DNA of 64,000 nt from a virus (taxonomy: Duplodnaviria; Heunggongvirae; Uroviricota; Caudoviricetes): the IMG/VR virus record IMGVR_UViG_3300022555_000011, positions 83,381 through 147,380 of that record; one strand, 5' to 3'. The position numbers and the translations under genes are program-made. The notes under the pieces were generated by a model that searched no databases, was not told the origin of the DNA, and saw nothing but the letters and a program-made list of their open reading frames with translations. Positions 17,843 through 43,133 of this stretch are shown here, in pieces; the first letter of the stretch is position 1, and the number at the start of each line of letters is the position of its first letter.

Positions 17843-17844
17843 TT

Positions 17845-19703: not shown

Positions 19704-19758
19704 CAATATTTAGGTTCAAATAGTATAAACTTGATATATTTTTATTACTATATACTAT

Positions 19759-20668: not shown

Positions 20669-20674
20669 CAAAAT

Positions 20675-20746: not shown

Positions 20747-20753
20747 CTATAAC

Positions 20754-20825: not shown

Positions 20826-20880
20826 CAAAAATATGTCGGGAACGGGAACGCACTGCTGGCGAGCAGCCCGCCGACACCAT

Positions 20881-20959
20881 GCACCTGTAATGGCGGAGTT
20901 TCCTAAACTCTATGTGCATAACGGAATGAAAAATGTGGGTTCGAATCCCATCTGGTGCC
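20881..20959 (+). tRNA. tRNA-like element B (paralog of 16400..16478)
   Basis: T-arm GTGGG-TTCGAAT-CCCAT, acceptor GCACCTG/CTGGTGC with T:T mismatch at same position as element A. Confidence 0.3.
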
Positions 20960-21047
20960 CAATTCTAAATCTTAAATTAATCTCTCTAAAAATATTAAAC
21001 TTTTATATTTTTTTAATTTATAATATTTTATAAATAAATTTTCAAAA

Positions 21048-22287: not shown

Positions 22288-22322
22288 AAGCCTGAAAATA
22301 ATTCATTTTCAGGCTTTTTTTG
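22288..22322 (+). terminator. intrinsic terminator (second of tandem pair)
   Basis: AGCCTGAAAATAATTCATTTTCAGGCTTTTTTT. Confidence 0.65.
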
Positions 22323-23432
22323 TACTTATTGTATTTTTTATTTTTATATATAAAAGTAAAAACTACGGTGAAAAATTACAAAGAGAAAAAGGTATTGTTT
22401 ATACTAAAGAAGAGAGAAGATTACGGTCCTAAACATCATGATCATAAAAGTTTAAGTACTGGTTTATATAATTCTGCAAGATTTGTTAATGAGATGTTGG
22501 TTGAGAATGGTATTAATTCTCATATGGTTGTTGTTAATGATAATAATGATATTGATAGAGAGGTTACTAAACATAGACCAACTCATGTTGTTATTGAAGC
22601 ACTTTGGGTCGTGCCAGAAAAATTCGCAATTTTACATAAACTTCATCCTAATGTTAAATGGATAATAAGAATGCACAGTGAGATTCCATTTATAGCAAAT
22701 GAAGGAAATGCGATGACTTGGTTGGGTGAATATGTTAAATATGAAAATGTTAGTATTGCATTTAATGCAAAAAGAATCTTAAAAGATTTTAAATTTTACA
22801 TTAAAACAGAAATGAGTTGGTCAGAAAAAGAAGTTGATCATAGAGTATTATATTTTCCAAATTATTTTCCACAAGATTATAAGGTAAAAAAATATGATAA
22901 AAAGAAAGAAGTCCTTAATGTTGCTTGTTTTGGAGCTGTTAGACCTTTAAAGAATCATTTGAATCAGGCATTAGCTGCATTAAGGTTTGCAGAATCTCTT
23001 GGTAAGCATCTACATTTCCACATTAATGTTGGAAGGTTTGAAATGAAGGGAGATCCAGTTTATAAGAATTTGAAGGGTATGTTTGATCAACTTTCAAATA
23101 GTCATCATAAGTTAATTGAGCATGAATGGATGCCTAGAGAAGTTTTTTTAGAATTATGTGAAAAAATGGATATTGGAATGCAGGTTTCTTTTTCTGAAAC
23201 TTTTAATATTGTTGGCTGTGATTTGATTAGTCAGGGTGTTCCATTAATTGGATCTGCTGAAATTGTTTGGATGAATAAGTTATATATGGCTGATCCGACT
23301 AGTACTGATTGTATGGTTAATAAATTAAAACGTTTATATTTTCATCCATATTTTAATGTTATAACAAATCAACTATTATTAACTCGTTATACTAATACAT
23401 CTAAAAATATTTGGGTTAGTTATTTTAAGTAA
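22320..23432 (+). CDS. hypothetical protein, possibly glycosyltransferase-like (true start probably downstream of 22320)
   Basis: ORF track; N-terminal 15 aa read through terminator T-run. Confidence 0.35.
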   Translation: MYLLYFLFLYIKVKTTVKNYKEKKVLFILKKREDYGPKHHDHKSLSTGLYNSARFVNEMLVENGINSHMVVVNDNNDIDREVTKHRPTHVVIEALWVVPEKFAILHKLHPNVKWIIRMHSEIPFIANEGNAMTWLGEYVKYENVSIAFNAKRILKDFKFYIKTEMSWSEKEVDHRVLYFPNYFPQDYKVKKYDKKKEVLNVACFGAVRPLKNHLNQALAALRFAESLGKHLHFHINVGRFEMKGDPVYKNLKGMFDQLSNSHHKLIEHEWMPREVFLELCEKMDIGMQVSFSETFNIVGCDLISQGVPLIGSAEIVWMNKLYMADPTSTDCMVNKLKRLYFHPYFNVITNQLLLTRYTNTSKNIWVSYFK

Positions 23433-23532: not shown

Positions 23533-26500
23533 ATGAGCGAATGGATTTTACAGTATGAAGAAGGTGAACCAATAAGAAGGAAATTAAATGAATTAAAAAG
23601 CACTGTTGATTTTATAGTTGCATCTGGTCTTACTTATACTTCTGGTACTTCTGGAACATCAGGTTCTGATGGAACTTCTGGTACATCTGGCACATCTGGT
23701 ACATCTGGCACATCTGGTACATCTGGTAAAGATGGTGTTTTTTTAGGAAGTTCAGGAAGTTCAGGCTTGTCTGGTGTTGATGGAACTTCAGGAACATCAG
23801 GCACGAATGGAACAGATGGAACATCAGGTACTAATGGGACGGATGGAACATCGGGCACTAACGGAACGGATGGTACATCGGGCACTAATGGAACTGATGG
23901 TACATCAGGTACTAACGGTACGAATGGAACGGATGGAACATCGGGCACTAACGGTACGAATGGAACTGATGGAACATCAGGCACAAATGGAACAGATGGA
24001 ACATCAGGCACGAATGGAACAGATGGAACATCAGGTACTAATGGGACGGATGGAACATCGGGCACTAACGGAACGGATGGAACATCGGGCACTAACGGTA
24101 CGAATGGAACGGATGGAACATCAGGTACTAACGGTACGAATGGAACGGATGGAACATCGGGCACTAACGGTACGAATGGAACGAATGGTACATCAGGCAC
24201 AAATGGTACATCTGGAACTAATGGTACATCAGGCACAAATGGTACATCTGGAACTAATGGTACATCAGGCACAAATGGTACATCTGGAACATCAGGAACG
24301 AATGGTACATCAGGCACGAATGGTACAAATGGTACAAATGGTACATCTGGAACGAATGGTACATCTGGAACGAATGGTACAAATGGTACATCTGGAACGA
24401 ATGGTACAAATGGTACAAATGGTACATCTGGAACGAATGGTACATCTGGAACGAATGGTACAAATGGCACATCTGGAACGAATGGCACAAATGGTACATC
24501 TGGAACGAATGGTACATCTGGAACGAATGGTACAAATGGTACATCTGGAACGAATGGTACATCTGGAACGAATGGTACAAATGGTACGAATGGTACAAAT
24601 GGTACATCTGGAACGAATGGTACATCAGGAACTTCAGGTGTTGGTATTTCTGGAACTAATGGAACATCAGGATCTTCTGGTATATCTTTAAATCCAAATG
24701 AATTAATAAATATACAATCAACTGGTGTATTGACTGGTGGTATTTTACAAATACCTTCAACTGGATCAACTGCTACATATTTTAATATAACAGATGGTAC
24801 TGGTTATATAATAAATAATTATACTGATCCATTAAATCCAATTAAAACTATTATAAGTTGGAGTGGATTAACAGGAATAACATCAGAATTTAGTTGGTTG
24901 GATGGTGAAGAATCAAATGTTGCAATTGATATAAATGGTAATGTTTTTCAACAAGTAAATCAATTTACAGATGCACAAAGAACAGATTTAATTGTATTAG
25001 GAACATTAGGACATTATGATGATGGTGGTGATATTGATTATGTTATACCAGAGCCAGTATCAATAACAGAGCCATTAGTTAAATTAGATAGTTTTTTACA
25101 AATGTTTGGCGCATTTAATGTTACTGGTAATGTTTTTTATGCTAATGGATCAAATTTAAATGTGAGTAAAACTGCTGGTGAGACATTTGATAATAATAAC
25201 AATTATTATATTGATAAAAAAACACCATCATTAGTTATTAGTGATTCGATATCAAAGTGTTGGTTTAATTATTATTTTAGAAGTGGTTCAACTTGGGAAT
25301 TTGGTGACTACACACAAAGCATTGACCCTAATAGATATGATACTGGAAATGGATTAACTGGTGTAACTGCTTCAGGATATACTATTCAAATGATATTCTA
25401 TTATGCTCCATTAGATAATGTTAGCCTAAATGTGGATATTCAATATGGTCAAAAGGTATATACTTCAAAAGAAAACGCTTTAGCAGATATAAATAATATA
25501 GTTGCAATTAATCCGTATTTAAATATGGATACATTTAGAGGATGGTTAATTGTTAAACAAGGTGCTACTGAGTTAAATAGTGATAATCAAGCAAGATTTA
25601 TTTCAGCAGGAAAGTTTGGTTTAGTGTCAAGTTCAACTGGAACAGGAGTAAGTGGAGGTATTACAACAGCTTCAAATATAGGTTTATATGGTCAAGGATT
25701 ATTTCACGATAAATTGGGTGTAGATTTAAGATTTAAAAATATAAATGCATATTCTGGTATAACAGTTATTGATAATCCTTCAAGTAATACATTGGATTTA
25801 TTTTTAACAAATATAAGTACTGGAACATCAGGCACATCAGGTACTAATGGTACATCTGGTACATCTGGAGTAGGAACTAATGGAACATCAGGTACATCTG
25901 GTGTTGGAACAAATGGAACATCAGGTACATCTGGTATAGGTATTTCTGGAACTAATGGAACATCAGGTACATCTGGAACTAACGGAACCTCAGGTACATC
26001 TGGAACTAACGGAACATCAGGCACATCTGGTATTTCTGGAACTAATGGAACTTCTGGCACAAATGGTACAAATGGAACTAATGGAACATCAGGTACATCT
26101 GGAGTAGGAACTAATGGAACATCTGGAACAAATGGAACATCAGGCACGTCTGGAGTAGGAACAAATGGAACATCAGGCACGTCTGGAGTAGGAACAAATG
26201 GAACATCAGGCACGTCTGGAGTAGGAACTAATGGAACAAATGGAACATCAGGTACATCTGGCGTTGGAACTAATGGAACATCAGGTACATCTGGAGTAGG
26301 AACATCTGGAACAAATGGAACATCAGGCACATCTGGTGTTGGAACAAATGGAACAAATGGAACATCAGGCACATCTGGTGTTGGAACAAATGGAACATCA
26401 GGTACATCAGGTGTAGGAACATCAGGAACTAATGGAACATCAGGAATAAATGGTGTTACTGGTGGTGTTACTATGTTATTTAGATTTAGTGGTTCTACAT

Positions 26501-27186
26501 TAGCAACTACAACAACTGGGTATACTCAATTTAATAATTTGACATTATCAAGTGTTACTCATTTATATGTTAGTGAAACAGATAGAAACGGTGCAAATAT
26601 AGATAAATATTTAGATTCAGTTGGTGTAGGAGATTATATTAAGATTTTTTCGGAACAAGATAATACAAAATTTCATTTATTTCAATTAAGTTCTGGATTC
26701 ACAAGTGGTGCTGGAGTAGATGATATGCCAGTAACATATATAGTAGGAAATGGAACATTTGCATTAAATGAGTTGATAGGATTTTCAACTGCAACAAAAG
26801 GAAATGCTGGTACTTCTGGCACAAATGGTGTAGGTATATCCAATATTACTTTTTTATTAGCAGTAGGAACTATATTAACAACTGGTACTAATAAAGCAAG
26901 AGTTACAGTTCCATATGTAGGAACAATATTAAAAGCATATGCAAGTTCTGGAACTGGACCACAAGGTGCGGACGATATTTTTGATATATATAGAAATGGT
27001 GTGAGTATATGGAATATTACGCAATCTAACAGATTAAAAATTTTAAGTGGTCAGACCTATGGAACTCAATCATCTTTTGATATAACTTCTATTGCAGAAG
27101 GTGATATTTTATCAATAGATGTAGATCAAGTTGGTAGTACAACACCAGGTGGAGATATATCAGTTCAATTAAAAATACAAATTTAA
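23533..27186 (+). CDS. collagen-like (GXY)n repeat tail-fibre-like protein
   Basis: two long G-T-S/G-T-N/G-T-D triplet-repeat regions flanking a globular domain; SD AAGGTGA upstream. Confidence 0.7.
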   Translation: MSEWILQYEEGEPIRRKLNELKSTVDFIVASGLTYTSGTSGTSGSDGTSGTSGTSGTSGTSGTSGKDGVFLGSSGSSGLSGVDGTSGTSGTNGTDGTSGTNGTDGTSGTNGTDGTSGTNGTDGTSGTNGTNGTDGTSGTNGTNGTDGTSGTNGTDGTSGTNGTDGTSGTNGTDGTSGTNGTDGTSGTNGTNGTDGTSGTNGTNGTDGTSGTNGTNGTNGTSGTNGTSGTNGTSGTNGTSGTNGTSGTNGTSGTSGTNGTSGTNGTNGTNGTSGTNGTSGTNGTNGTSGTNGTNGTNGTSGTNGTSGTNGTNGTSGTNGTNGTSGTNGTSGTNGTNGTSGTNGTSGTNGTNGTNGTNGTSGTNGTSGTSGVGISGTNGTSGSSGISLNPNELINIQSTGVLTGGILQIPSTGSTATYFNITDGTGYIINNYTDPLNPIKTIISWSGLTGITSEFSWLDGEESNVAIDINGNVFQQVNQFTDAQRTDLIVLGTLGHYDDGGDIDYVIPEPVSITEPLVKLDSFLQMFGAFNVTGNVFYANGSNLNVSKTAGETFDNNNNYYIDKKTPSLVISDSISKCWFNYYFRSGSTWEFGDYTQSIDPNRYDTGNGLTGVTASGYTIQMIFYYAPLDNVSLNVDIQYGQKVYTSKENALADINNIVAINPYLNMDTFRGWLIVKQGATELNSDNQARFISAGKFGLVSSSTGTGVSGGITTASNIGLYGQGLFHDKLGVDLRFKNINAYSGITVIDNPSSNTLDLFLTNISTGTSGTSGTNGTSGTSGVGTNGTSGTSGVGTNGTSGTSGIGISGTNGTSGTSGTNGTSGTSGTNGTSGTSGISGTNGTSGTNGTNGTNGTSGTSGVGTNGTSGTNGTSGTSGVGTNGTSGTSGVGTNGTSGTSGVGTNGTNGTSGTSGVGTNGTSGTSGVGTSGTNGTSGTSGVGTNGTNGTSGTSGVGTNGTSGTSGVGTSGTNGTSGINGVTGGVTMLFRFSGSTLATTTTGYTQFNNLTLSSVTHLYVSETDRNGANIDKYLDSVGVGDYIKIFSEQDNTKFHLFQLSSGFTSGAGVDDMPVTYIVGNGTFALNELIGFSTATKGNAGTSGTNGVGISNITFLLAVGTILTTGTNKARVTVPYVGTILKAYASSGTGPQGADDIFDIYRNGVSIWNITQSNRLKILSGQTYGTQSSFDITSIAEGDILSIDVDQVGSTTPGGDISVQLKIQI

Positions 27187-27203
27187 AAAACAATAATAAT
27201 AAC

Positions 27204-30200
27204 ATGGCAAAGCAATGGAGCACAATAGATTTTACAGAGTCGTATACAACAGGAAATACATATGATTCAACAAAAAATAGTATTTTTGGAGGTTTGGAAG
27301 TTACTAATGGTGTAATTCGAGTACCATTACCAAGGGTAATTCCATATCTTGAACAAGGTAATGGCGCATTACTAGCCAACTCCGTATATGCTGATTCAAA
27401 TTATATTTATACAGTTACTACAATGGCTACTGGTTTAACAGTTAGAGTAAACAGATGGAATAAAAAAACACAGATTTGGGCTGGATACATTATTATGACT
27501 TTATCTAAAGCATCAGAAATAAATACTTGTAGAGATATTTGGGTTAATTCTGGTTCTACAGAAGTGATTGTTGGTTTTACAGCAGCAACTGCATTACAAG
27601 GTGGACTTGCTTGGGTTTATGGACTTACTACAAATGATTGGGCTGGTGTAACTTTGCTTGCTGGTATTAATACAATTGCACCAAGAATGTGTTATTTAAT
27701 TAGATCAGGTGTTATTGATAGAACAGTTGTTGTTGGTTCTGGTACTAACTTTCAGTCTTATTCAACTCAAAACGGTACAACACTTGCTACACAAGCAGGT
27801 GCTGCTACATATACAGTTGCAACAGCAATTTATGCTACATCAGGATGGGCTGTTGCTTATGGAGGAGGATTATGGGTTTCAGCAGGTGAAGGAACAAACT
27901 CATTAGCTTGGTCTTATGATGGTATAACTTGGACAGCGATTGCTTCTGGTGTTGGTAACTTTTCTACAAGAGGTAGAGGTGTGTGTTATGGTGAAATTCC
28001 TGGAGTTGGTGGTAGATGGGTTGCTGTTGGTGTAGGTACAAACTCTATTATTTATTCTAATGATGGTGTAAACTGGGTTATTCCCGCACAAGGTATTACG
28101 GCTACTGGTGTGTTCACTACTGGCGCATATGGTGTGTGCTGGGATGGTACAAATTTCTGGGCAGTTGGTCAAGGTACAAATACATTAGCATCATCACCTG
28201 ATGGTATAAACTGGACTGGCTATGGTCAAGCTGCTGATGGTGGCGCAAATCACTCTCCATTCTCAACCGCAGGTTATGGCATTGCATATAATGGTAGTCA
28301 ATATGTTGCAATGGGAATTGGTGGTATGACAATGGCATATTCTTCTAATGGTACTCAATGGACAGCATGTGCTTCACCTCCATTTACACAAGGAAACGCT
28401 GTGTGTTGGGGTGCACAAGTAGGTAATATAGTTACACCAGGTACAGCAATTACACCAAGATGGTGTGCTGTTGGTATTGGAGCATCACATACAATAGCTT
28501 GGTCAACAGATGGTATTAACTGGACTGGTGCTGGTGTTACAATGTTTCCAGCAATTTCTGGTGGTAATGGTGTATGTTTTAATGGTACAGTATTTACAGC
28601 AGTAGGTACTAAGGGCGCTGGTTCATTTACTGCGGCATATTCACATGATTGTGTGACTTGGAACGGTGTTTTAACTAATTTACCTCAGTTAATTGGACAA
28701 GCAGTTGGATGTAGTCCTGCTCCTAATATGTATCCTGCTAAAGTTGGATCTACAAATAATGTACTTTCAACTATTTCTAATATTGCATTGGATAATACAA
28801 ATAATACTGGTGTGAATAATGGTAATTGTAAAGTATATATAATACAGTCAACAAATTCTGTTGCTGCTCCTGCACTAACTTTATTAGATTTGAGTTCAGG
28901 ATTAACTTCACAAAATGGAATTATAACTGTTCCAGATACTTCAAGATTTAGTTCTGCAATTATGACATCAGAATATGCTTCTAACTTACCATCTGCTACT
29001 GTTTCACAGATTACAATTGCGTCACCAGGTGCTAATCATCCTGTTGGTATTTCAGGAGTCACTGCTTTATTCCTTACTCGTGGGACTGCGGCTGCAAGAG
29101 TCGGAAGAGTTGTTATAAGTAGATTTACTGCGGCAACGCCAACTACAAGAAGATCAAGACTTAATAATACCGCAACATTAACATTTGCTTCACACAACTT
29201 TACTGTTAACCAAAGAGTTATTGTTTATGGATTTACTGGTGTTAGTGGTGTGACTTATAATAATGGTGGATTTGGAAAAGAACCAGGTATTCAAGTAGTT
29301 ATAACATTTGCTAATGCAACAACGATTCAATATGTAAATATTGGACCTAACGAAGCTGATATGCCTGATACAAATGGAAGAGTAATCGCAACATTAATTG
29401 GTGAAGATGATTATATAACTGATATTCCACCATTAGGTGCAACAATTCAACAGCCTGTAAATAACTGGGCAGGACTTGCATATGATTCGTTTAATGATTA
29501 TTTTATAATTTTAAGTAATGGTTCATTTAGAAATTATAGGGGAATTTATAATCCAGGTTTACCATTAGAAAGATTTTGGGGTATAGTAAATTTTGAAACT
29601 AATCCAATTGCTGGTGCATATTTACCTGCTGTAGCTGCAACGATGCTTTCTGTGAGAATTGGCTATGCTGATAGAACATTAATAGTACCAAGACAAGGTT
29701 TGACTGCCGCCGTTCCAGCTGCTCAACAATTATTATTAATAGAAGTTGGAGCACAAGGATCTTATGTTATAACAAAAGAAATTCTCACAACTAATGCGAC
29801 TGCTTTTTATAGAGTATATACATCTGAAAAAAGAGGTGGTAGTGGAAGTTATTCAAAAGAAAGATATGATATTTATTATAGAACAACTGGTATTTCTGAT
29901 AATTCAGGTGCATGGACTATAATTAATGACGAAGCATCTTTATATAATGTGACAGCGGCGGCTTCAATTCAGTTTAAGATAGTTTTTGATATACTTAATT
30001 GGACTTGTATTTCACCTGAGATTACTTCACTGGGCTTAACTTGGGAAGATGGTGTTACTTCTGATAGTCATTATCAACCATCAGTTGGTAAATCATCAGT
30101 GTCAGGTAAACAGTTTGCTTGGAAATTCGCTACACCTTTTGCACTTTCTGGAGGTACTATTCCAAATTTAAGAGTTAGATTATATGATGCTGTTTCTGGT

Positions 30201-30389
30201 GTTATGCAATGTGATGATAATACTGATACTAATCCAGCTTCTGGTAGTTTTCAAATAACAACTAATGATGGCGCTAACTGGACTAACTGGACAAATGCAG
30301 ATAAAGGAAATGAAACTACTTATTTGAGATATACACCTGCTTCAACGGCAAATAATATAATAATTAAGGCAGTATTAACATTATTATAA
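27204..30389 (+). CDS. BNR/Asp-box beta-propeller protein (tail fibre / receptor-binding candidate)
   Basis: repeated S-x-D-G-x-x-W-T motifs (SYDGITWT, SNDGVNWV, SPDGINWT, STDGINWT, SSNGTQWT). Confidence 0.6.
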   Translation: MAKQWSTIDFTESYTTGNTYDSTKNSIFGGLEVTNGVIRVPLPRVIPYLEQGNGALLANSVYADSNYIYTVTTMATGLTVRVNRWNKKTQIWAGYIIMTLSKASEINTCRDIWVNSGSTEVIVGFTAATALQGGLAWVYGLTTNDWAGVTLLAGINTIAPRMCYLIRSGVIDRTVVVGSGTNFQSYSTQNGTTLATQAGAATYTVATAIYATSGWAVAYGGGLWVSAGEGTNSLAWSYDGITWTAIASGVGNFSTRGRGVCYGEIPGVGGRWVAVGVGTNSIIYSNDGVNWVIPAQGITATGVFTTGAYGVCWDGTNFWAVGQGTNTLASSPDGINWTGYGQAADGGANHSPFSTAGYGIAYNGSQYVAMGIGGMTMAYSSNGTQWTACASPPFTQGNAVCWGAQVGNIVTPGTAITPRWCAVGIGASHTIAWSTDGINWTGAGVTMFPAISGGNGVCFNGTVFTAVGTKGAGSFTAAYSHDCVTWNGVLTNLPQLIGQAVGCSPAPNMYPAKVGSTNNVLSTISNIALDNTNNTGVNNGNCKVYIIQSTNSVAAPALTLLDLSSGLTSQNGIITVPDTSRFSSAIMTSEYASNLPSATVSQITIASPGANHPVGISGVTALFLTRGTAAARVGRVVISRFTAATPTTRRSRLNNTATLTFASHNFTVNQRVIVYGFTGVSGVTYNNGGFGKEPGIQVVITFANATTIQYVNIGPNEADMPDTNGRVIATLIGEDDYITDIPPLGATIQQPVNNWAGLAYDSFNDYFIILSNGSFRNYRGIYNPGLPLERFWGIVNFETNPIAGAYLPAVAATMLSVRIGYADRTLIVPRQGLTAAVPAAQQLLLIEVGAQGSYVITKEILTTNATAFYRVYTSEKRGGSGSYSKERYDIYYRTTGISDNSGAWTIINDEASLYNVTAAASIQFKIVFDILNWTCISPEITSLGLTWEDGVTSDSHYQPSVGKSSVSGKQFAWKFATPFALSGGTIPNLRVRLYDAVSGVMQCDDNTDTNPASGSFQITTNDGANWTNWTNADKGNETTYLRYTPASTANNIIIKAVLTLL

Positions 30390-30404
30390 AAATAAATATA
30401 AAAT

Positions 30405-30629
30405 ATGATACATAATCTAAAAATAGATAGGGATGCATTTATAGCAATTGTTGATGGTAGAAGAAAATTTGATTTTAGACCTAATGATAGAATATATGAT
30501 ATTGGTGATACAATAATTCATAGTGATGAAATTAATAATACTTGTGAGAGTGTTATCACGTATATTATGTATGATAGTCCTCTTTTATCTTTAAGTGGAT
30601 TTATAATAATATCAATTGAATTGAAATAA
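30405..30629 (+). CDS. hypothetical small protein
   Basis: ORF track. Confidence 0.35.
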   Translation: MIHNLKIDRDAFIAIVDGRRKFDFRPNDRIYDIGDTIIHSDEINNTCESVITYIMYDSPLLSLSGFIIISIELK

Positions 30630-30631
30630 TT

Positions 30632-30841
30632 ATGGCAATATCTGATATAGTATATACAGAATCTGATTATTTTATAATGGAATTGACTGGTATCACTGGT
30701 ACGGTAAATGATATTGTATTTGATAATCCATTAATAGATGAAATAATAGGCGTAAATGGTACTGCAAATGATGTTTTATTCGATGATAATACAGTAAGTG
30801 AGATACCAAATGTTTTGATTACTGATTTTGGCTTTATATAA
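30632..30841 (+). CDS. hypothetical small protein
   Basis: ORF track. Confidence 0.35.
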   Translation: MAISDIVYTESDYFIMELTGITGTVNDIVFDNPLIDEIIGVNGTANDVLFDDNTVSEIPNVLITDFGFI

Positions 30842-30912
30842 AAATAAAAAATAGAGTTACTTTTGATGGAATCAATGTATAAATTATAAATTAAAGTTTT
30901 AATATATACTTT

Positions 30913-31623
30913 ATGGAGTATTTAAAAACTTTTGAGTCTTATAATGATGATTTAATTTTAGAAAGATTGGATCTTCAGCCATTATTGAATTTATTAAAAT
31001 CATCAGTAAATAAAAATGCTATTGCAACATTAATTGTTGGTAGTTTATTGGCTGTATCAAGTGTTGCACAAGCAACTAATTTTATAGAAAATAGAACAGA
31101 TTTGGATCATAAAGATAAAGTTGTATTAGTTCAAGCTATTAAAAAATATCATGATCCATTAACATTGAGATTAAGTCATTCTGGTTGGGATCATATAAGA
31201 AAGCACGAAAAATTAAAATTGCAGGCGTATTCAATTGGTGATGGAATGATTACTATTGGATATGGTCATGCACTACCAGTTGATGAGTCTAAATATAAAG
31301 TTGGAGATAAGATTTCTGTTAAAACTGCAAATAATTTATTTATTCAGGATATGAATGTTGCAGCTAAGGGTGTTAAAAGAATATTTGAAGAATGGAAAGA
31401 GCAGGGTATTAATATTAAACTTACTCAAAATCAATATGATGTGCTTGTGAGTTTGGCATACAATCTTGGTGTCACCGATTTACGAACAAGTAATTTCATT
31501 CAATTTATTAAGGAAAATAAACTTACTAGAGCTGCTAAGCAAATTAGAATTACTGGTATCAGTGAAAAATTTCCTGGATTGGAGAAGAGAAGATTAGAAG
31601 AATATAAAATGTTTATATCTTAA
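30913..31623 (+). CDS. GH24 (T4-type) lysozyme with CTS-like N-terminus and signal/anchor segment
   Basis: MEYLKTFESYND; AIATLIVGSLLAVSSVAQA; E..11..D.GMITIGYGH; QYDVLVSLAYNLG. Confidence 0.7.
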   Translation: MEYLKTFESYNDDLILERLDLQPLLNLLKSSVNKNAIATLIVGSLLAVSSVAQATNFIENRTDLDHKDKVVLVQAIKKYHDPLTLRLSHSGWDHIRKHEKLKLQAYSIGDGMITIGYGHALPVDESKYKVGDKISVKTANNLFIQDMNVAAKGVKRIFEEWKEQGINIKLTQNQYDVLVSLAYNLGVTDLRTSNFIQFIKENKLTRAAKQIRITGISEKFPGLEKRRLEEYKMFIS

Positions 31624-31755
31624 AATCGTTTTCGAGAATATCCTTGATTATAATGATTTTTAAATAGGTCTCCAAGTAATCCTTTAGAATGTGCTGCGTT
31701 CTTCCGTCCAATAATTACGACTTTCAAATGTTTTTAGATATTTCATTTATATCTC

Positions 31756-32049
31756 TTAAATATTAAATTTTATTGTTTGTAATTTTAATTTAAAATTATC
31801 AATTTCTTCTGTTGTTAATTTTCTTTCAATTGAAGTTCCAGGTGTATCATCATAATATTCTTTTATTCCATTTTCTTTTAGTAAGATGAAAGTGTGCATA
31901 TTTATAATATCAAGTTTATAATCTTTTCTATATTTAATTGTTACAATTTTTCCTGGTATATAATTTGATTTATAATTTTTAATTAAAACATAATCATTTT
32001 CTTTGTAAATCTGAAATTCTATTTCTTCAAATGTTTTTAGGTATTTCAT
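31756..32049 (-). CDS. CTS/KYNI family small protein
   Basis: MKYLKTFEEIEF ... TIKFNI. Confidence 0.5.
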   Translation of the reverse strand: MKYLKTFEEIEFQIYKENDYVLIKNYKSNYIPGKIVTIKYRKDYKLDIINMHTFILLKENGIKEYYDDTPGTSIERKLTTEEIDNFKLKLQTIKFNI

Positions 32050-32405
32050 AGATTATATTTTATTAATGTTTCTAATTCTTTATCATCGTCAGAATAAGCT
32101 ACGACATCACTATATTGAAATGAATGATAGTATAATGGGTTATTTTTATCCATTTGAGAATTACCCCAAGATGAAAAATGATTTAAAATATTATTTGGTA
32201 TATTTTTATACTTAACATGAATAAAAATAGATTTTGTATCTATAATTTTTCCTATATTAGTATTTATAAATTTTTCAAATTCTGTATAATTAGATGAAAA
32301 ATTATTACGTTCTCTGCATTTTATTATGACATAATCACAATCTTTCGGTCTATTACTTCTATTAAATGAGAATACAACTTCTTCAAACTGTTTTAGATGT
32401 TTCAT
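32046..32405 (-). CDS. CTS/KYNI family small protein
   Basis: MKHLKQFEEVVF ... LIKYNL. Confidence 0.5.
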   Translation of the reverse strand: MKHLKQFEEVVFSFNRSNRPKDCDYVIIKCRERNNFSSNYTEFEKFINTNIGKIIDTKSIFIHVKYKNIPNNILNHFSSWGNSQMDKNNPLYYHSFQYSDVVAYSDDDKELETLIKYNL

Positions 32406-33499
32406 AGATTAAATTTATTTGAAATTTGTTTTAATTTTACAGTTTCTCTATTTTTTAATCTTTGTTCATTGGTTCTTTTTAATTTATCAACGAATTTTTT
32501 AACAAAGTCTTCAACAGAAATATTTTCTCCAGAATCATATCTAGATACTAAATTACCATTTCTGAATTCATTTGTTCTTGGATTATTTTTTATACTACGA
32601 ACTTGTACAATAAATTTTGTGTTATATCTGTAAATTCCTCTATTTATAGTTTCAATACTAAATATTTTACATCCATAATCATCATCTAATAGGAATATTG
32701 TTTCCTCTACACAAAGACTTGATGATGTTTCTTTTAAATGTTTTGAAAATTCTTCTTGAATTTTTTCTTTTAATTTATCTTTTTCTTCTTGTTCTAAATA
32801 ATTTTCTCTTTCGATTGGATTAGATGAATCTTTTCTAGGATACTGCATAGATTCGTTTTTAATGAATTTTTTAAATTTAGTGAATATTCCTTGTTTTTGA
32901 GAGTCAGTACCGAAAGAAAATTGAGTTTTTTGTTCTGATTTATAAGGTTCTGTAATGTCTAGAATTACAGGAGGTTTTTTATTACTATATAGTTGACTTT
33001 TTGAATAATTATAAAAATCAAATTGCGGATTTTTTCTTTTTATTTTTTTAAGTAAATCTTCTGTTATTTTTTCATTTTTTTTACTAAGATCATTATAATT
33101 TTCTGTAGATATACCAATTGCAAATGCATTTTCATTTCTTAATCTATAAAAGAAAACAAATTTTGTATTAAGGTCATATATTCTACTACCTTTTTCTACC
33201 AGCTCTAATGCTTCTCCCATTGTGCTATGATAAAATGACATATTTCTTTGTGCAACATATAAATCACCATCAGATGTTCCAATAGCTCTTACATTATCTT
33301 CAAAATTTTTTAGTGTTTTAGGATTTTTGAATAGTGCTATTTTTTTATCATAAGGATCTTTAACATATGCAACTGGCGGTATTTTAGAGATATAGTTTTG
33401 ATATTTATATTCAAAATCTTTATTAGGATTTTCAAAATAAAATCTTTTTTCTGCATATTCGTCAGCTACACCTTCATTAAATTTTTTAATATGATTCAT
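32402..33499 (-). CDS. CTS/KYNI family protein (365 aa)
   Basis: MNHIKKFNEGVAD ... ISNKFNL. Confidence 0.5.
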   Translation of the reverse strand: MNHIKKFNEGVADEYAEKRFYFENPNKDFEYKYQNYISKIPPVAYVKDPYDKKIALFKNPKTLKNFEDNVRAIGTSDGDLYVAQRNMSFYHSTMGEALELVEKGSRIYDLNTKFVFFYRLRNENAFAIGISTENYNDLSKKNEKITEDLLKKIKRKNPQFDFYNYSKSQLYSNKKPPVILDITEPYKSEQKTQFSFGTDSQKQGIFTKFKKFIKNESMQYPRKDSSNPIERENYLEQEEKDKLKEKIQEEFSKHLKETSSSLCVEETIFLLDDDYGCKIFSIETINRGIYRYNTKFIVQVRSIKNNPRTNEFRNGNLVSRYDSGENISVEDFVKKFVDKLKRTNEQRLKNRETVKLKQISNKFNL

Positions 33500-33786
33500 A
33501 TATTATATTTAGCTAAATTTTTTTTGTATTCAAATTTGAATATTTCTTTCGGTTTTAGTTTTCTTTTTATTTCAGTATCGACATTATTAAGAGTTACTAA
33601 TTTGTTTTTATCTAAATCAAAAACTTCAATTTTATATTGAACCTTGTTTTGCCCATATAAATATTGTAATCCAATTACTTTTGCATAATGATCGTATGGA
33701 GTTCCACCATCAAAATATACATAACTATAATTATATTTTACAGGTATGTGTGGTATACTAGTTTCAAACATTTTTAAATATTTCAT
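33496..33786 (-). CDS. CTS/KYNI family small protein
   Basis: MKYLKMFETS ... NLAKYNI. Confidence 0.5.
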   Translation of the reverse strand: MKYLKMFETSIPHIPVKYNYSYVYFDGGTPYDHYAKVIGLQYLYGQNKVQYKIEVFDLDKNKLVTLNNVDTEIKRKLKPKEIFKFEYKKNLAKYNI

Positions 33787-34073
33787 ACATTATATTTATT
33801 AATTCTCTCTTCATAATCATATTTCTCTATTTCTTCTGATGTTAATAACCTAACTATTTCTTTTTCTTGTATTGCATCTTCCTCACCATTCGGATATTTA
33901 ATATAATATGGAGACTCACTAAATCTTGAATAATCTATATCAATTATTTTTGCAAGGGAATGTGGTGGAATACTTAGATTGTTTAAGTTTTTTGTTAGTA
34001 ACTTAACATTTATCAAAATATAATCATTAATCTTATATCTTCTATATGCTTCAAACTTTTTTAAATATTTCAT
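33783..34073 (-). CDS. CTS/KYNI family small protein
   Basis: MKYLKKFEAYRR ... RINKYNV. Confidence 0.5.
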   Translation of the reverse strand: MKYLKKFEAYRRYKINDYILINVKLLTKNLNNLSIPPHSLAKIIDIDYSRFSESPYYIKYPNGEEDAIQEKEIVRLLTSEEIEKYDYEERINKYNV

Positions 34074-34118
34074 ATAATATCTATATATAATTTTTTATGT
34101 ATAAAAAAATGATTACAT

Positions 34119-34835
34119 TTGCATATGATGACACGATTACAAGAATACTTTGAAGATCAAATTAGAATTTTTAATGAACATCATTCCAGATTGCTCATAG
34201 ATGTGACTGAGGAAGATATTCATAAGATAAGAACTACACTTAAAAGACTGAAAAATTTTAACATCTTACTAGATGGCTTACTTTTCAGAGATAAGGATTT
34301 CCCCACGGGCTTTACTAATTTATTTAAACTGTCAGGTGAGATCAGAGATATTCAAATCCAGCAAAAGATTTTAGCAGATTATAAAGATCCTTATCAATTA
34401 TATCTTTCTGAAATGCTTGAAAAGAAACTAGAGCTTTTTAAGATTAAAGAAAGCTTTCAAGAAGAATTTAAACATTTGAGTGATAAATTGGATCGAATAG
34501 AGGAATTTCATATTGATGAACAAATCCTAGCAAATGTTAATTCTAGAGTGGAGATTGGACTGTCTGATATTTGCAATATAGAAATTACACCAACAAATTT
34601 GCATGAGATAAGAATCAGATTAAAGAGAATTTATTATACTCTTTTAATGTTGGATGAAAAGTCTAAGATTAATAAGATAGATGATATTCAGGAAACAATC
34701 GGATTGTGGCATGACCATGATGTTACTATTGAGAGAATAACTGAATTTGATAATGATTTAGAAATAATTGATTCTTTATCAAAGAAAAGAGATGATTTTT
34801 ATAAAAAATCTTTAGAATTACTTAAAGAATTATAA
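34119..34835 (+). CDS. hypothetical protein
   Basis: 238-aa ORF. Confidence 0.5.
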   Translation: MHMMTRLQEYFEDQIRIFNEHHSRLLIDVTEEDIHKIRTTLKRLKNFNILLDGLLFRDKDFPTGFTNLFKLSGEIRDIQIQQKILADYKDPYQLYLSEMLEKKLELFKIKESFQEEFKHLSDKLDRIEEFHIDEQILANVNSRVEIGLSDICNIEITPTNLHEIRIRLKRIYYTLLMLDEKSKINKIDDIQETIGLWHDHDVTIERITEFDNDLEIIDSLSKKRDDFYKKSLELLKEL

Positions 34836-35765
34836 TTACATACTTATTTTATCTAGTTCTGAAATTTTATTCCAATCTATTGCTAATAAAAATTCTATAT
34901 CATCTGTTGACGGCCTTACTGTTGATATGTATTTAATAAACAATTCATTATCAACTGGACTATTCATATCCTTAATATATCCTTTTTTTACCATATAACT
35001 TTTAAATGTTTTCCATCTAGCGAATATTTCTGGCGCTGATGATAAATATTCAATATGATTTATTGTTTTATCAGATAAATCCTTAATTAATTTTTTTATT
35101 TCTTGACCACTTTTATTAAATCTTGCGCCAAAAATAGATGCATATTTCCTATGTATATAATTTTCATCTTTATCTTTTACACTTTTATCAATAAATTGAG
35201 GTAGATTTAATTCTACACTTAAATCACCTTTTTGACCTAATAAAGCATCTACGTAGTGATAAATTTCATGAACTAATGTATTAACTAAATCATCATCATT
35301 TTCATACATTTTATTAACAATAATTATATTTTCAGTTGAAGTTTTATTTAGTTTAAATAATGGATAATAAATTGGATTTCTGCCCATTGATTTTTCAAGA
35401 TCGCCAAGTTTCATATACAATGCAACAGTAGTTTTTTTAAGTATGTTTTTGCCAGTTGGATTAGCAAATTTTATTGTTATATTTCTCAATGAATCTAGAA
35501 TGTATGATTTTACATCAGATTTAAATCTTGGTGAAATTTTAATTTGTTCTATGATGTTTGTTTTTAGACTATCTATTTGGTGTTTTTGATCAGATGTGCC
35601 GTCATATGATGCTGAGTTGACTATTGTATATAAATTGTTTATCTCACTGTAATTATTAACTGTAGTATAACCAGCATATAACATAGTTAAGTACATTGCA
35701 ACATCCCAAAATTTTATCTTTTCATCTATATGTTCATATTGAGTAAATTCTTTAATGTATTTCAT
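34836..35765 (-). CDS. CTS-tagged HExxH zinc-metallopeptidase-like protein
   Basis: MKYIKEFTQYEH N-term; LVHEIYHYVDA. Confidence 0.5.
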   Translation of the reverse strand: MKYIKEFTQYEHIDEKIKFWDVAMYLTMLYAGYTTVNNYSEINNLYTIVNSASYDGTSDQKHQIDSLKTNIIEQIKISPRFKSDVKSYILDSLRNITIKFANPTGKNILKKTTVALYMKLGDLEKSMGRNPIYYPLFKLNKTSTENIIIVNKMYENDDDLVNTLVHEIYHYVDALLGQKGDLSVELNLPQFIDKSVKDKDENYIHRKYASIFGARFNKSGQEIKKLIKDLSDKTINHIEYLSSAPEIFARWKTFKSYMVKKGYIKDMNSPVDNELFIKYISTVRPSTDDIEFLLAIDWNKISELDKISM

Positions 35766-37311: not shown

Positions 37312-37746
37312 ATGCAATCAGCATCAAATTTAGTAAATGTGACAAGACAAGAAAATACCTTAACAAATAATGGTATGGTAACAAATTCAACCAGTTTGAA
37401 TTCAAATGTTGATATGTTCTTTTTAGCGGGAGCTTCAAGGAAAATGTCAGAAAAAGATATTGAAACCCTTTTCCAAAAGGCGATTGTGGAAGATCCATCA
37501 GTTGCTTTAAAACTTATGTTCTGGTCAAGAGACCCAAGAGGTGGAGCTGGAGAAAGAAGGTTCTTTAGAATTTGTGCTATGTTTCTTCGTAAGAATTATC
37601 CAGAATATTTACTTAAAAATTTGAAACATATTGCTGAATATGGAAGATATGATGATTTGACTTTTTTGTTGAGCGAAGGTGAAAATGATAAAGTGGATAA
37701 AGAAATTCTATCATATATAAAAGAAACTTTAGAAGGTGACAAATGA
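37312..37746 (+). CDS. N-terminal piece of a DUF2828/TROVE-vWA-like protein
   Basis: FWSRDPRGGAGERRFFRICAMFLR; gene interrupted by LAGLIDADG ORF. Confidence 0.45.
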   Translation: MQSASNLVNVTRQENTLTNNGMVTNSTSLNSNVDMFFLAGASRKMSEKDIETLFQKAIVEDPSVALKLMFWSRDPRGGAGERRFFRICAMFLRKNYPEYLLKNLKHIAEYGRYDDLTFLLSEGENDKVDKEILSYIKETLEGDK

Positions 37747-38611
37747 TTATATTGATTTTAGTGTAATTGACTCTGAATTAAAAGCATATTTAATTGGATT
37801 TTTTTATGCTGATGCTACTTTATCAGAGTATGTGATTTCAGTTAGGTTATCAATAAAAGATAAAGCACATCTTGAGAAATTGGCAAATATTTTAGATAAG
37901 CCAACTTCTATTAAAGATGTAAAAAATAAAAATGGTAAAATTTATAAAGCGATTGGTTTTAATATATGTAGTAAACAAACTGTTGACTCATTGAGAAAAA
38001 TTGGATTTGTTGTAAATAAGACTTATCAAATTGATGATGTTGTTTTTAATAATGTTCCTGATAATTTAAAAAGACATTTTGCCAGAGGATTTTTAGATGG
38101 TGATGGTACTATATTTTTTTCAAAATGGAAAGATAAAAAACATAATTGGAATAGAAATCCAAGATGCTCTGTCGGTTTTGTTTCTTATAATAGTAGATTA
38201 TTAGAAACTATTAAAAATTGGTTACAACAAGTTCTAAATTTGGAAGATAAAAATATTAAAAGTGATAATTTTGAAGATTTAGAAAAAAATGAAAAATATT
38301 GGAGACTTATTTATAGTGGAAATAGAGTTAGTAAAAAAATATTAGATTTACTATATGATAATTCCACAATTTATATGGACAGAAAATATGAAAAATATTT
38401 AGAAATTGCTGTATATACACCTAAAGGTTATCATTTTAATACTGCTGAAAAAGTTTGGAAGGTTCCTTATAAGGATGAATTTAATAAACAAAAAGCAAAG
38501 AGATTTAAAGATGAAGTTGATGCACAGAATTTTTTAAAAGATATAAAAAACAATAACAATAAAAATAAAATTAAGACGTATGAAAAATTTATTAGCAAAA
38601 TGGTTAAGTAG
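37736..38611 (+). CDS. LAGLIDADG homing endonuclease (GTG start)
   Basis: KAYLIGFFYADATL and FARGFLDGDGTIFF double LAGLIDADG motifs. Confidence 0.7.
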   Translation: MTNDYIDFSVIDSELKAYLIGFFYADATLSEYVISVRLSIKDKAHLEKLANILDKPTSIKDVKNKNGKIYKAIGFNICSKQTVDSLRKIGFVVNKTYQIDDVVFNNVPDNLKRHFARGFLDGDGTIFFSKWKDKKHNWNRNPRCSVGFVSYNSRLLETIKNWLQQVLNLEDKNIKSDNFEDLEKNEKYWRLIYSGNRVSKKILDLLYDNSTIYMDRKYEKYLEIAVYTPKGYHFNTAEKVWKVPYKDEFNKQKAKRFKDEVDAQNFLKDIKNNNNKNKIKTYEKFISKMVK

Positions 38612-39563
38612 AAAAGGATATGAATTTAACAAGGTTCGTAAGTATATGGGATTATCCCCAAAGGAATATCGTAAACTTGTTGTTGGTTTATCAAATACTG
38701 TTGAGCAAAAAATGTGTGCAAAGGATTGGGAAGAAATTACCTATTCACATGTACCTTCAGTTGCTATGAACAAGTATAGAAAAGCATTCTTAAAGAATGA
38801 TATGGGCCGTTTCAATGAGTATATTGAACTGGTACACGAAGGTAAGGAAGAAATCAAGGCTGGTGTTTTGTTTCCACATATGTTATATGAAGCTTGGAAG
38901 AGACATGAAGATAAAAGAGCAGTCGAGGCACAATGGAATAATCTTCCAGACTTCATGGCAGATTCGAATGAGAGAGTCATTCCAGTTTGCGACGTATCAG
39001 GTAGTATGTCAGGTCTTCCAATGTCAGTTTCAGTAGCATTGGGTGTATATATGTCTGAAAGAAATAGAAGTATTTTCAAGGACGCATTTATTACATTCTC
39101 AAGTGAACCAACAATGCAATATTTGAAAGGTTCATTGTATGAAAGACTTCGTCAGTTGGAAAGTGCTGAATGGGGTATGAGCACTAACTTAGAAGGTGTT
39201 TATAAGTTGATATTGAATAAAGCAACTAAGAATAACCTTCCAGAGAGCGAAATGCCAACTAAAATATTGATTATTTCTGATATGGAATTTAATCAATGTG
39301 CTCAAAATGGAAATGATACTGCTTTATCAATGATAAAGAGAATGTATTCTGAGGCTGGTTATAAATTGCCAGATATCATTTTCTGGAATGTTAATGGTAG
39401 ACTTGGTAATGTTCCTTCAAACTTTAAAGCAAAGAATGTAGGACTAGTTTCAGGATTCAGTCCAGCAATATTAAAATCTGTTCTATCAGGTAGCATTGAT
39501 ACACCAGAAAGTTTGATGTTGAAAACTATAAATAGTGAAAGGTACCAACCAATCACAGCTTAA
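38580..39563 (+). CDS. C-terminal piece: vWA-domain protein
   Basis: VIPVCDVSGSMSG MIDAS motif; ILIISDMEFNQ. Confidence 0.55.
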   Translation: MKNLLAKWLSRKGYEFNKVRKYMGLSPKEYRKLVVGLSNTVEQKMCAKDWEEITYSHVPSVAMNKYRKAFLKNDMGRFNEYIELVHEGKEEIKAGVLFPHMLYEAWKRHEDKRAVEAQWNNLPDFMADSNERVIPVCDVSGSMSGLPMSVSVALGVYMSERNRSIFKDAFITFSSEPTMQYLKGSLYERLRQLESAEWGMSTNLEGVYKLILNKATKNNLPESEMPTKILIISDMEFNQCAQNGNDTALSMIKRMYSEAGYKLPDIIFWNVNGRLGNVPSNFKAKNVGLVSGFSPAILKSVLSGSIDTPESLMLKTINSERYQPITA

Positions 39564-42062: not shown

Positions 42063-42893
42063 TTATTTGCCTCCTGCGTTATAAACTGGTGTTGCACTAC
42101 CAAAGATGAAGGTAAGATTTGCATCTTTTTTATCTTTAACCAATTCAACTTTTTCTTTCTCAATTTCAAGATGCCTTAAACTTAGATATTCTGAAACTGA
42201 CATACCCATTTCGTTTTTATATGCCTTGTCAGCAATAGCCTTATTGATTTCTGCTTGTTTCCTTGCGAATTCGGCATCTGCCCTTGCATTCTGTGTTAGA
42301 ATACTTTGATTTTGTGCGGCTGTTAATTTAGTTTCTGTTAATACTTGTTCTGGTGGTGTAATAGCACCAATGGAAACTTGAAGAATTTCAACAGGCAAAT
42401 TTAATTTCTTTGCATAAGCAGTAATGTCTGTAAAAATGTCTCGTTCAAGTTGTGCAGAAATCTCACGTTTACTTGCCAAGTCAAACATCTTAAATGCACA
42501 AGCCTTGTCTCGTACCATTGTTCTAAATGATGCTTGTAAACTATGTTTATACCATTCTGCGGAAAATTTTTCATAAAGTACTGGTGTATTACCACTTTGA
42601 ACTAGAACTTTAAGATATGCACTAAATGAAACTGGTGTGTTATCAGAAGGAATCATATTTACGAAATCTTCTGTAATTGTTTCAGGAGTGATGGCGAACT
42701 CTTTATGATCTGTAGTGAACACACACCAAGTAGAACCTGCTGAAACTGGAGTCTTGTCAACACCACCATGACCAAAGAACATAGGCTTGTAAATCAACAC
42801 AGATTCAACACCTGCATCTGGCTGAACTCGGTAACAACTTGTCAATGACAATGCAAAAAGCAACGAAAGAAATAGAAACTTAAAATTTTTCAT
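42063..42893 (-). CDS. SPFH/band-7 domain lipoprotein
   Basis: lipobox LTSC; Ala/Gln-rich C-terminal helix typical of SPFH. Confidence 0.55.
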   Translation of the reverse strand: MKNFKFLFLSLLFALSLTSCYRVQPDAGVESVLIYKPMFFGHGGVDKTPVSAGSTWCVFTTDHKEFAITPETITEDFVNMIPSDNTPVSFSAYLKVLVQSGNTPVLYEKFSAEWYKHSLQASFRTMVRDKACAFKMFDLASKREISAQLERDIFTDITAYAKKLNLPVEILQVSIGAITPPEQVLTETKLTAAQNQSILTQNARADAEFARKQAEINKAIADKAYKNEMGMSVSEYLSLRHLEIEKEKVELVKDKKDANLTFIFGSATPVYNAGGK

Positions 42894-42953: not shown

Positions 42954-43133
42954 TTAAATAAAAAAGGAATTTCCACAATCTGGACAATATTTTTCATCTA
43001 TTTCATCTTTTGAAAAAGATTTATCATAAGTACATTCGCCAACAACATCTTCAATTTTCAGATCATTAAAACAATAAGGACACTGCATTATAGCATCCTG
43101 TTCCCTCATTGTATCTAAATCAAAAAAACTCAT
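42954..43133 (-). CDS. small zinc-ribbon protein (59 aa), not in ORF track
   Basis: hand translation MSFFDLDTMREQDAIMQCPYCFNDLKIEDVVGECTYDKSFSKDEIDEKYCPDCGNSFFI. Confidence 0.35.
   Translation of the reverse strand: MSFFDLDTMREQDAIMQCPYCFNDLKIEDVVGECTYDKSFSKDEIDEKYCPDCGNSFFI

Follow-up and report, generated by a model that had tools for sequence, protein, structure and literature searches.

Why should five neighbouring genes of a virus encode proteins of very different length that begin and end in almost the same way? The genes lie at positions 31756-34073 of a 64,000-nucleotide stretch of DNA that was analysed as a whole (hereafter the window; positions 83,381 to 147,380 of the IMG/VR record IMGVR_UViG_3300022555_000011, Caudoviricetes). 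An earlier note, made from the sequence alone, had described them as a hyperplastic tandem locus whose conserved ends recall the capsid-targeting sequence (CTS) of phage T4 and flank unrelated middles. Our analysis indicates that the two ends are very probably a portable address tag, acting at the level of the protein, on a hyperplastic family of cassettes. The fuller statement, in which this address-tagged superfamily is also targeted to the capsid and injected, has in our judgement somewhat less than an even chance of being right.

Five tandem cassettes and their terminal tags

The locus consists, as had been claimed, of five minus-strand open reading frames (ORFs) of 96 to 365 aa that lie head to tail and overlap at each junction by the four nucleotides ATGA. 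The operon-first gene, cassette 1 (33783-34073), encodes 96 aa (MKYLKKFEA...NKYNV) with a predicted barrel and C-terminal helix, and matches the hidden Markov model (HMM) of the family core with an E value of 2e-25. Cassette 2 (33496-33786; 96 aa; MKYLKMFET...AKYNI; core HMM E 6e-13) belongs to the same barrel family and has an ATGA overlap on both sides. It is followed by cassette 3 (32402-33499), a composite protein of 365 aa (MNHIKKFNE...NKFNL), by cassette 4 (32046-32405; 119 aa; MKHLKQFEE...IKYNL), which is of a second barrel subfamily, and by cassette 5 (31756-32049; 97 aa; MKYLKTFEE...IKFNI; core HMM E 1.9e-11), which ends in TAA. Nine bases past this stop codon lies the truncated start of a sixth cassette on the same strand (31684-31746; ATGAAATATCTAAAAACATTTGAA..., MKYLKTFESRNYWTEERSTF*), a 20-codon remnant with no mismatch to the start motif.

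We refer to the shared start as the N-tag and to the shared end as the C-tag. The 24-nt start motif has seven matches in the window against 0.05 expected, far beyond chance. Within other proteins encoded by these phages, the frequency per residue is 2.4e-4 for the C-terminal tetrapeptide and 3.4e-5 for the N motif, whereas nine ORFs of the window carry the C-tag and eight the N-tag at their ends. Because these end counts far exceed the internal background rates, chance is excluded for the window tags. The C-tag recurs outside the array at 1565-1960, 12326-12727, 62003-62506 and 62503-62778, and each of these occurrences named in the earlier note is real. Starts like the N-tag are likewise present at 1023, 6476, 13222, 30913, 34836 and 61695, but three of the N-termini among the sites named are looser (MKILKLNE, MEIKKFEA and MKIERFNS). 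Across 244 representatives the N-tag reads, in percent, M99 K91 Y81 [LI]94 K90 x [FY]91 E90 and the C-tag K87 Y85/F9 N93 [LI]95, and both ends are better conserved than any position of the core. Where the cargo is heterogeneous, the C-tag is longer, with about 10-12 residues that read [L/I]-K-K-[N/D/S]-[A/T/S]-[N/K]-K-[Y/F]-N-[L/I]-COOH.

This conservation resides in the amino acids. Six Leu/Ile codons are used at N-tag position 4 in background proportions, Asn is encoded by AAC in 27% of tag codons versus 13% in the background and Tyr by TAC in 14% versus 10.5%, and 119 of the 365 C-tagged ORFs described below end in TAA or TAG without an overlapping start. Synonymous sites also differ between the junctions of the window array. 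The codon variation within the tags and these synonymous differences together exclude a purely nucleic-acid signal as well as homogenisation by gene conversion, and they show that both tags are under selection as protein and not as DNA or RNA.

The tags are also portable. By BLAST, 83 middles trimmed of their ends resolved into 53 components. The 111 larger tagged proteins include eight with ankyrin repeats and six with leucine-rich repeats (LRR), together with DMP19-like, HAD, methyltransferase and DnaJ-zinc-finger proteins, and in the window the N-tag stands alone on two unrelated folds, a GH24 lysozyme and an HExxH protein. With selection at the protein level, unrelated cargo and a leader that is unpacked in the structural model described below, the idea that the leader is a portable signal was borne out. 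The tagged proteins have a median size of 109 aa and are soluble by prediction, with a transmembrane-like segment in one of the 111 larger ones.

The putative operon leader of the array (AAAAAATTATATATAGATATTAT; 34074-34096, minus strand) carries, 14-16 nt before the ATG, the promoter-like TATATA box that occurs phage-wide. For most operon-first genes of the window, a TTATATATA(A/G) box precedes the start codon by 20-30 nt, but the distance is only 10-16 nt for the N-tagged gene starts at 30913, 34073, 35765 and 62778, which suggests that tagged operons have very short leaders.

Cassette middles, turnover and distribution

The middles, which had been called unrelated, share a barrel HMM/BLAST component in four of the five genes, and it is only the 365-aa protein that differs. 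The 96-, 96- and 97-aa proteins and the product of 62503-62778 are 26-40% identical in pairs, and a family HMM built without the termini matches all four (E 2e-25 to 2e-11). Through a subfamily with the pattern xDYVI...NIGxI...NIP, a second related barrel type, the 119-aa protein is linked into their BLAST component. Judged from sequence, the middles of these four array genes are homologous SH3/Tudor-like barrels. In the 365-aa protein, the segment 216-365 shares 48% identity with a cassette of 168 aa on the related contig L023; the first 215 residues had no relative among the related loci compared, and the whole protein as query had no match in IMG/VR.

A homologue search with a single sequence recovered only the query protein itself. 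An AlphaFold2 model of the cassette barrel computed from an alignment of 102 sequences (predicted local distance difference test, pLDDT, 78.4) places strands at residues 18-22, 38-46, 56-59, 65-68 and 73-76 and a helix at 79-94, as in a five-stranded SH3/Tudor-like barrel. Foldseek gave probabilities of 0.98-1.0 to Tudor, PWWP, SH3 and YorP structures with E values of only 3e-3 to 3e-2, the top matches being the LBR Tudor domain, YorP (2heq) and an entry of BFVD named 'YorP protein'. Small phage proteins of the YorP-like and Tudor-SH3 kind thus share the fold of the commonest cargo, but unlike the cassettes they have neither terminal tags nor an array organisation. In the model the C-tag forms the end of the helix packed on the barrel. 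The N-tag (residues 1-10) has a pLDDT of 51, where most residues of barrel and helix score 83-92, and makes no predicted contacts; it is conserved yet not packed.

Comparison with relatives showed how the locus changes. Contig L023 is syntenic with the window from 31.7 to 36.2 kb, with flanks 77-84% identical in nucleotides that include a gene for a CHAD-domain protein and an N-tagged gene of 311 aa, but it has nine cassettes (114, 107, 98, 168, 94, 133, 111, 109 and 100 aa) where the window has five. Counterparts are found only for its last cassette and for part of one other, and cassette 5 is the only window cassette with a clear full-length orthologue there (100 aa, 77% nucleotide identity). 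A 235-kb NCBI contig, L019, is 79-92% identical to the window at 50-64 kb and lacks the gene at 62003-62506. Because the ...NKFNI*/MKTY... junction of L019 aligns to both window junctions of this gene, the 167-aa cassette is bounded by repeated ...K-Y-N-I-stop/Met-Lys... sequences. A variant in ERZ1426824 has a 44-aa ORF after the 365-aa gene. These comparisons show that recombination adds and removes cassettes precisely at the ...K-Y-N-I*/M-K... junction, and it is this recombination at conserved junctions that makes the locus hyperplastic, with exchange of cassettes as the earlier note had supposed.

The superfamily extends well beyond the window. An exhaustive profile search returned 383 cluster representatives at E<=1e-3, all of them full-length and of about 85-120 aa, and 182 matches included contigs of 531, 501, 400, 286 and 235 kb. 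Members lie on AT-rich viral contigs (21-27% G+C) of up to 531, 501, 400, 330, 286 and 235 kb. The strict 26-nt junction pattern has 59 exact-match stretches in IMG/VR. Against genome contigs it found five stretches, only one of which, a contig with masked runs in a metagenome-assembled Muribaculaceae genome, bears a tagged ORF. In 749 kb of related sequence with 1311 unique ORFs, the N-tag was present on 277 ORFs, the C-tag on 365, and both tags together on 236. Where neighbouring tagged genes were scored as pairs, an ATGA overlap joined 234 of these pairs, and we saw none fused in frame. The longest run, on a 531-kb contig (L021; ENA ERZ27297473 k141_239578, 3751-20342), has about 46 consecutive tagged genes. 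At least four middle families recur in this array, namely two barrel types, a 'YWxIP...WGW' family and a 'KYxVW...DC(I/L)D' family, and it also has an ankyrin member.

Cassette proteins had no Pfam-A match above noise and one weak PHROG match of unknown function (E 0.0026), 14 array proteins, concatenated as a tblastn query, had no match among 50,697 deposited phage records (INPHARED), and no earlier description of such arrays or tags was found in the literature. This is a large superfamily that was previously unannotated. LR756504.1, a 636-kb huge phage, was matched solely through one gene start, MKYFRTFE; at about 3020-3040 of its locus L002, non-coding TATATAATCTATG before that gene resembles a KYNL-coding junction.

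What the tags may address

We propose that the locus is one operon of a cassette superfamily of AT-rich, T4-related huge phages and that its products bear a bipartite tag, made up of a free N-terminal octapeptide, M-K-Y-(L/I)-K-x-(F/Y)-E, and an amphipathic C-terminal helix ending in (N/K)-K-(Y/F)-N-(L/I)-COOH. The exchangeable cargo between them is mostly the ~100-aa SH3/Tudor-like barrel, with ankyrin and LRR proteins besides. The tags may be an address read by one common partner, whose likeliest location would be the prohead core, as for the T4 CTS. Small binder proteins would then be packaged, co-injected with the DNA and active on host factors or defences, and the invariant Glu8 may be the P1 residue for a prohead protease of the S77 type. 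By analogy, capsid targeting like that of the T4 CTS is the best single hypothesis that we can offer for the tags, but a tentative one to which we give rather less than even odds.

The analogy has several parts. The T4 CTS is MKTYQEFIAE (PMC8442874), and we confirmed the leaders of T4 internal proteins IPII and IPIII in AF158101. Its residues 4 and 7 serve targeting, and residues 8 and 10 serve processing (PMC9026906). The array leader keeps M1 and K2, a hydrophobic residue at position 4 (L/I, 94%) and an aromatic one at position 7 (F/Y, 91%), so that the targeting determinants are retained as a similarity, which is not proven homology; in both leaders, moreover, a Glu stands near the end. Three genes in or beside tagged operons start with MKTYNQFIEA, MKTYSKFIEL and MKTYEQF. 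The first of these had been called nearly identical to the T4 CTS, which overstates the case, though six of ten positions (M1, K2, T3, Y4, F7 and I8) are indeed common to the two. As in T4, where IPI, IPII, IPIII and Alt share a short conserved leader, the leader here stands on otherwise unrelated small proteins. The internal-protein loci of T-even phages are likewise variable, with conserved gene starts, and lie beside a GH24 lysozyme (PMC9026906, PMC3012670), and the T4 e-ipIII-ipII adjacency resembles that of lysozyme and array in the window. Here, too, variable cassettes lie between conserved flanks, the CHAD gene and the 309-aa gene. T4 Alt is a packaged ADP-ribosyltransferase (ART), and the leader-bearing product of 13222-13971 is ART-like (DarT/Tpt1). 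S77 proteases cut after Glu, the site being AXE in SPN3US (PMC7411985), and Glu8 of the array leader is 90% conserved. The replication genes of the lineage also place it near T4. This T-even locus is the closest known system, from which the arrays differ in motif (MKY(L/I)Kx(F/Y)E versus MKTYQEFIAE), in having two tags, in cargo, and in scale and translational coupling, with 5 to about 46 ATGA-coupled genes where T4 internal-protein loci have one to three.

A number of observations weigh against capsid targeting and injection. The site (L/I)xE, after which, as the earlier note had it, gp21 cleaves the T4 leader, is not conserved: [LI]xE ends at E8 in 23 of the 244 representatives and at no other conserved position, although a different P3 preference at Glu8, which is 90% conserved, is possible. 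The T4 processing determinants I8 and E10 are not conserved in the array leaders, and the MKTY-type leaders of the window have E9, not E10. The tagged proteins are of fitting size but are not highly basic, with a median isoelectric point (pI) of 6.3 (10th-90th percentile 4.6-9.2; 6.6-9.5 for the six tagged proteins of the window itself) compared with 9.3 and 9.5 for T4 IPII and IPIII. The C-tag, as conserved as the N-tag, has no counterpart in T4. Arrays lie among replication and homing-endonuclease genes and not in structural modules, and the number of tagged proteins per genome, dozens and probably hundreds, is far above any known packaged set. The hydrophobic segment of the N-tagged lysozyme suits a membrane-anchored or signal-arrest-release endolysin as well as an ejection protein. 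Finally, phmmer searches with T4 gp21, gp22, gp23, gp24, gp67 and gp68 had no match in the window and the 749 kb of related loci, a sample that is array-centred and replication-biased and comes from incomplete genomes. In a tblastn search of T4 gp21 against all phages, the matches listed were filled by T4-like phages.

The most serious rival, less probable than capsid targeting but not by itself far-fetched, is that the tags dock the proteins on a common intracellular hub (a phage or host chaperone, a protease or adaptor, or a PDZ-like reader), so that they would be non-packaged host-takeover or anti-defence effectors made after infection. A hub would agree with tags that are protein-level, portable and unpacked in the model, with the near-neutral pI, with arrays placed among early/middle-type replication genes, and with cargo consisting mostly of protein-binding modules (SH3/Tudor, ankyrin, LRR); in addition, Y/F-N-L/I-COOH resembles the form phi-x-phi-COOH read by C-terminal-peptide binders. 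No candidate hub was identified, however, the likeness of the MKTY leaders to the T4 CTS would be left unexplained, and the ~100-aa size and invariant Glu8 suit packaging and processing equally well. A related proposal, about equally probable, keeps the bipartite address code but gives it no link to the T4 CTS. Small binders (SH3/Tudor, ankyrin, LRR, DNA-mimic-like), dozens to hundreds per genome, would form a phage 'effectorome' routed to one machine, which could be the prohead, the ejection apparatus or a reader of the PDZ/protease type. Diversified by shuffling at the coding junction, such an effectorome would be, by analogy, a prokaryotic-virus counterpart of repertoires of the RxLR/PEXEL type. 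In a still more speculative variant, the Lys and Glu of the N-tag and the Lys and Asn of the C-tag, with their aromatic residues, could give rise to Lys-Asn isopeptide bonds, by which the proteins would be stapled or joined into chains.

Two simpler readings do without an address. The termini might be just the best-conserved structural parts of the shared fold in an ordinary paralogous family that grew by tandem duplication, with the longer members arising by insertion; the HMM without termini does assign 20 of 83 array genes, and four of the five in the window, to one barrel family, another barrel subfamily related to it is common too, and the C-tag ends a helix packing on the barrel. We nevertheless consider this improbable, since ankyrin and LRR proteins bear the tags as well and a GH24 lysozyme bears the N-tag, folds that cannot be derived from an SH3 barrel, since the N-tag has a low pLDDT and no predicted contacts, and since the termini exceed every core position in conservation. 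Disfavoured more strongly still, to the point of being very hard to maintain, is the idea that peptide conservation is the by-product of a nucleic-acid signal at the junction, whether ATGA termination-reinitiation, an internal promoter or a recombination box that gene conversion keeps uniform. It could draw on the 234 ATGA junctions, on the mapping of indels to junctions, and on non-coding TATATAGATATTATATG and AATATATATTATATG upstream of operon-first genes, which loosely resemble KYNI-coding sequence. Against it, variation at third positions and at the first position of Leu/Ile codons is at or above background, one third of the C-tags precede TAA or TAG with no overlapping gene, the window-array junctions differ at synonymous sites and so are not homogenised, and Glu8 (GAA/GAG) and Phe/Tyr7 are kept where a rule of A/U-richness would allow many codons.

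Other known addressing systems resemble the proposed bipartite tag in part. Short terminal, often C-terminal, peptides such as encapsulin cargo-loading peptides and the C-terminal coat-binding helices of scaffolds address unrelated cargo to the inside of an HK97-fold shell; their motifs are other than those found here, and the tags described here stand at both ends. The RxLR proteins of oomycetes and the PEXEL proteins of Plasmodium are large, fast-evolving effector families that share only a short terminal motif on diverse binder and effector cargo. They serve eukaryotic secretion and translocation and are unrelated in sequence and mechanism, so that their likeness to the tagged cassettes is one of analogy only. 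The heads of the giant phages SPN3US and phiKZ contain many packaged ejection (E) proteins, whose propeptides, cleaved after Glu, have been proposed to target the prohead, and a C-terminal propeptide has been proposed to target the protease itself (PMC7411985, PMC5694885). Those propeptides are of about 110-130 residues, have no shared octapeptide and show no sequence similarity to the tags, and the genes that encode them do not form cassette arrays.

Should the tags prove to be a code for delivery or packaging, these uncultured huge phages would deploy a repertoire of addressed small proteins far larger than any other known. All of it could be recognised from sequence alone by a 12-residue signature (277 N-tagged and 365 C-tagged ORFs in less than 1 Mb), and hundreds of 'hypothetical proteins' of huge Bacteroidota phages would become a defined, testable class of candidate anti-defence or takeover binders. 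The tag would also be a portable means of loading foreign proteins into such capsids, as with the T4 CTS. Whatever its function, the family is a clear example from nature of how cassettes evolve, with a coding junction that serves as recombination site as well.

Other tagged genes, neighbours and phage lineage

A second array lies at 61695-62778 on the minus strand and has three genes. The gene at 62503-62778 (91 aa) carries both tags and belongs to the barrel family, 62003-62506 (167 aa) is the C-tagged inserted cassette that L019 lacks, and 61695-62006 (103 aa) has the CTS-like leader MKTYNQFIEA. A plus-strand mini-array at 1023-1960 comprises two genes, 1023-1568 (leader MKTYEQF, ending in LINI) and 1565-1960 (MKILKLNES...KKYNI), joined by an ATGA overlap. 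The plus-strand gene at 12326-12727 (MEIKKFEAY...GKFNI) is isolated and ends in TAA with no overlapping start, and that at 6476-6703 (plus strand, 75 aa) has the looser leader MKKLKNYDQFV. The ART-fold protein mentioned above (13222-13971, plus strand, 249 aa, leader MKTYSKFIEL) has profile matches to ADP-ribosyltransferase folds of the DarT/Tpt1 type. Its family is of about 230-270 aa, and the C-terminal half matches the single-stranded DNA ADP-ribosyltransferase DarT (8baq, E 9.6e-5) and Tpt1; the leaders of homologues vary (MKTYSKFIEL, MKYFKKFEGL, MKNF...), and an identical copy is present on the 235-kb NCBI contig.

Next to the five-gene array, the gene at 34836-35765 (minus strand) encodes a 309-aa putative metallopeptidase with the N-tag only (MKYIKEFTQ), a HEIYH motif and a weak SprT-like match. 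It is kept beside the array in relatives, its start being MKYIREFNQ in L023. Between them lies the divergent gene at 34119-34835 (plus strand), which encodes a CHAD-domain protein (PF05235, E 5e-11) and neighbours the array in every relative seen; this domain is unusual in a phage. On the other side, convergent with the array, is the plus-strand gene of the N-tag-only GH24 lysozyme (30913-31623; MEYLKTFES; hydrophobic segment at residues 36-54; Phage_lysozyme PF00959, E 1.7e-22). It is part of an 8.3-kb block (23533-31623) that also encodes a collagen-repeat protein of 1217 aa and a protein of 1061 aa for which deposited phages have no relatives; two small ORFs complete the block. The block is missing from L023, where the array adjoins the homologue of 22320-23432.

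The window is densely coding, with a G+C content of 21-37% that is mostly about 27%, and holds 17 tRNA genes, two TnpB genes, a collagen-repeat fibre gene and genes for a D12 methylase, phosphoribosyl pyrophosphate synthetase, Hsp20, a NUDIX protein and a protein like nicotinamide mononucleotide adenylyltransferase. The array flanks encode a single-stranded DNA-binding protein like T4 gp32, bacterial translation initiation factor IF3, a clamp loader, a helicase, SbcCD and RNase H, besides homing endonucleases and transposases. The RNase H-like protein of the window is nearest to those of the 634-735 kb uncultured huge phages LR756501-4 and LR745206 (37.5-41% amino acid identity), then to those of Prevotella Lak phages and then of T4-like phages. 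By its replication genes the lineage is T4-related, and the window probably derives from a huge phage with a Bacteroidota host. Iyer et al. (PMC7824862) assigned Lak-B8 to jumbo-phage group 2.2, a group with a capsid of the gp23 type, a gp20 portal and a prohead protease of the S77 (T4 gp21) type; from this placement of Lak, head genes of the S77/gp23 type may be expected in the clade. An origin from a giant eukaryotic virus (nucleocytoplasmic large DNA viruses) was considered for the 27% G+C, the collagen repeats, TnpB and the ankyrin/LRR cargo. It was ruled out by the bacterial IF3, T4 gp32, clamp loader and SbcCD in the flanks, and is also contradicted by the ATGA-coupled operons, the TAnnTTTG boxes described next and the huge phages as nearest relatives.

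Upstream of most operons is the TATATA box, and upstream of several lipoprotein genes is TAnnTTTG, the -7 box of Bacteroidota. In the form TTATCTTTG the latter replaces TATATA before the minus-strand genes 56782-58614, 59251-61131, 42063-42893 and 42954-43133 and the plus-strand gene 12776-12931, some of which open with lipoprotein-like signals. In the close relative L019 the first of these genes is absent and the second is replaced. Genes preceded by TAnnTTTG look like insertions of the moron type, and they indicate a Bacteroidota host. A sigma-70 scan of the AT-rich window DNA was uninformative, with 45 sites found against 52 expected.

The tRNA genes form an island at 16100-21000 among ORFs like HNH and homing endonucleases (17159-17842, 18350-19210 and 19759-20598), and ARAGORN further reported, at 20754-20826, an unusual tRNA whose anticodon has 2 nt. 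The same window encodes a Ro/TROVE-like RNA-binding protein (38580-39563, and 37736-38611; PHROG 850, E 9e-106), for which the Pfam summary gives DUF2828/DUF7788; no search was made for a partner like the Y-RNA noncoding RNAs. The TnpB/IS605-OrfB genes, with a Cas12f-like TNB domain, lie at 49589-50806 (minus strand) and 52999-54243 (plus strand), and transposase PHROGs recur beside arrays in the related contigs.

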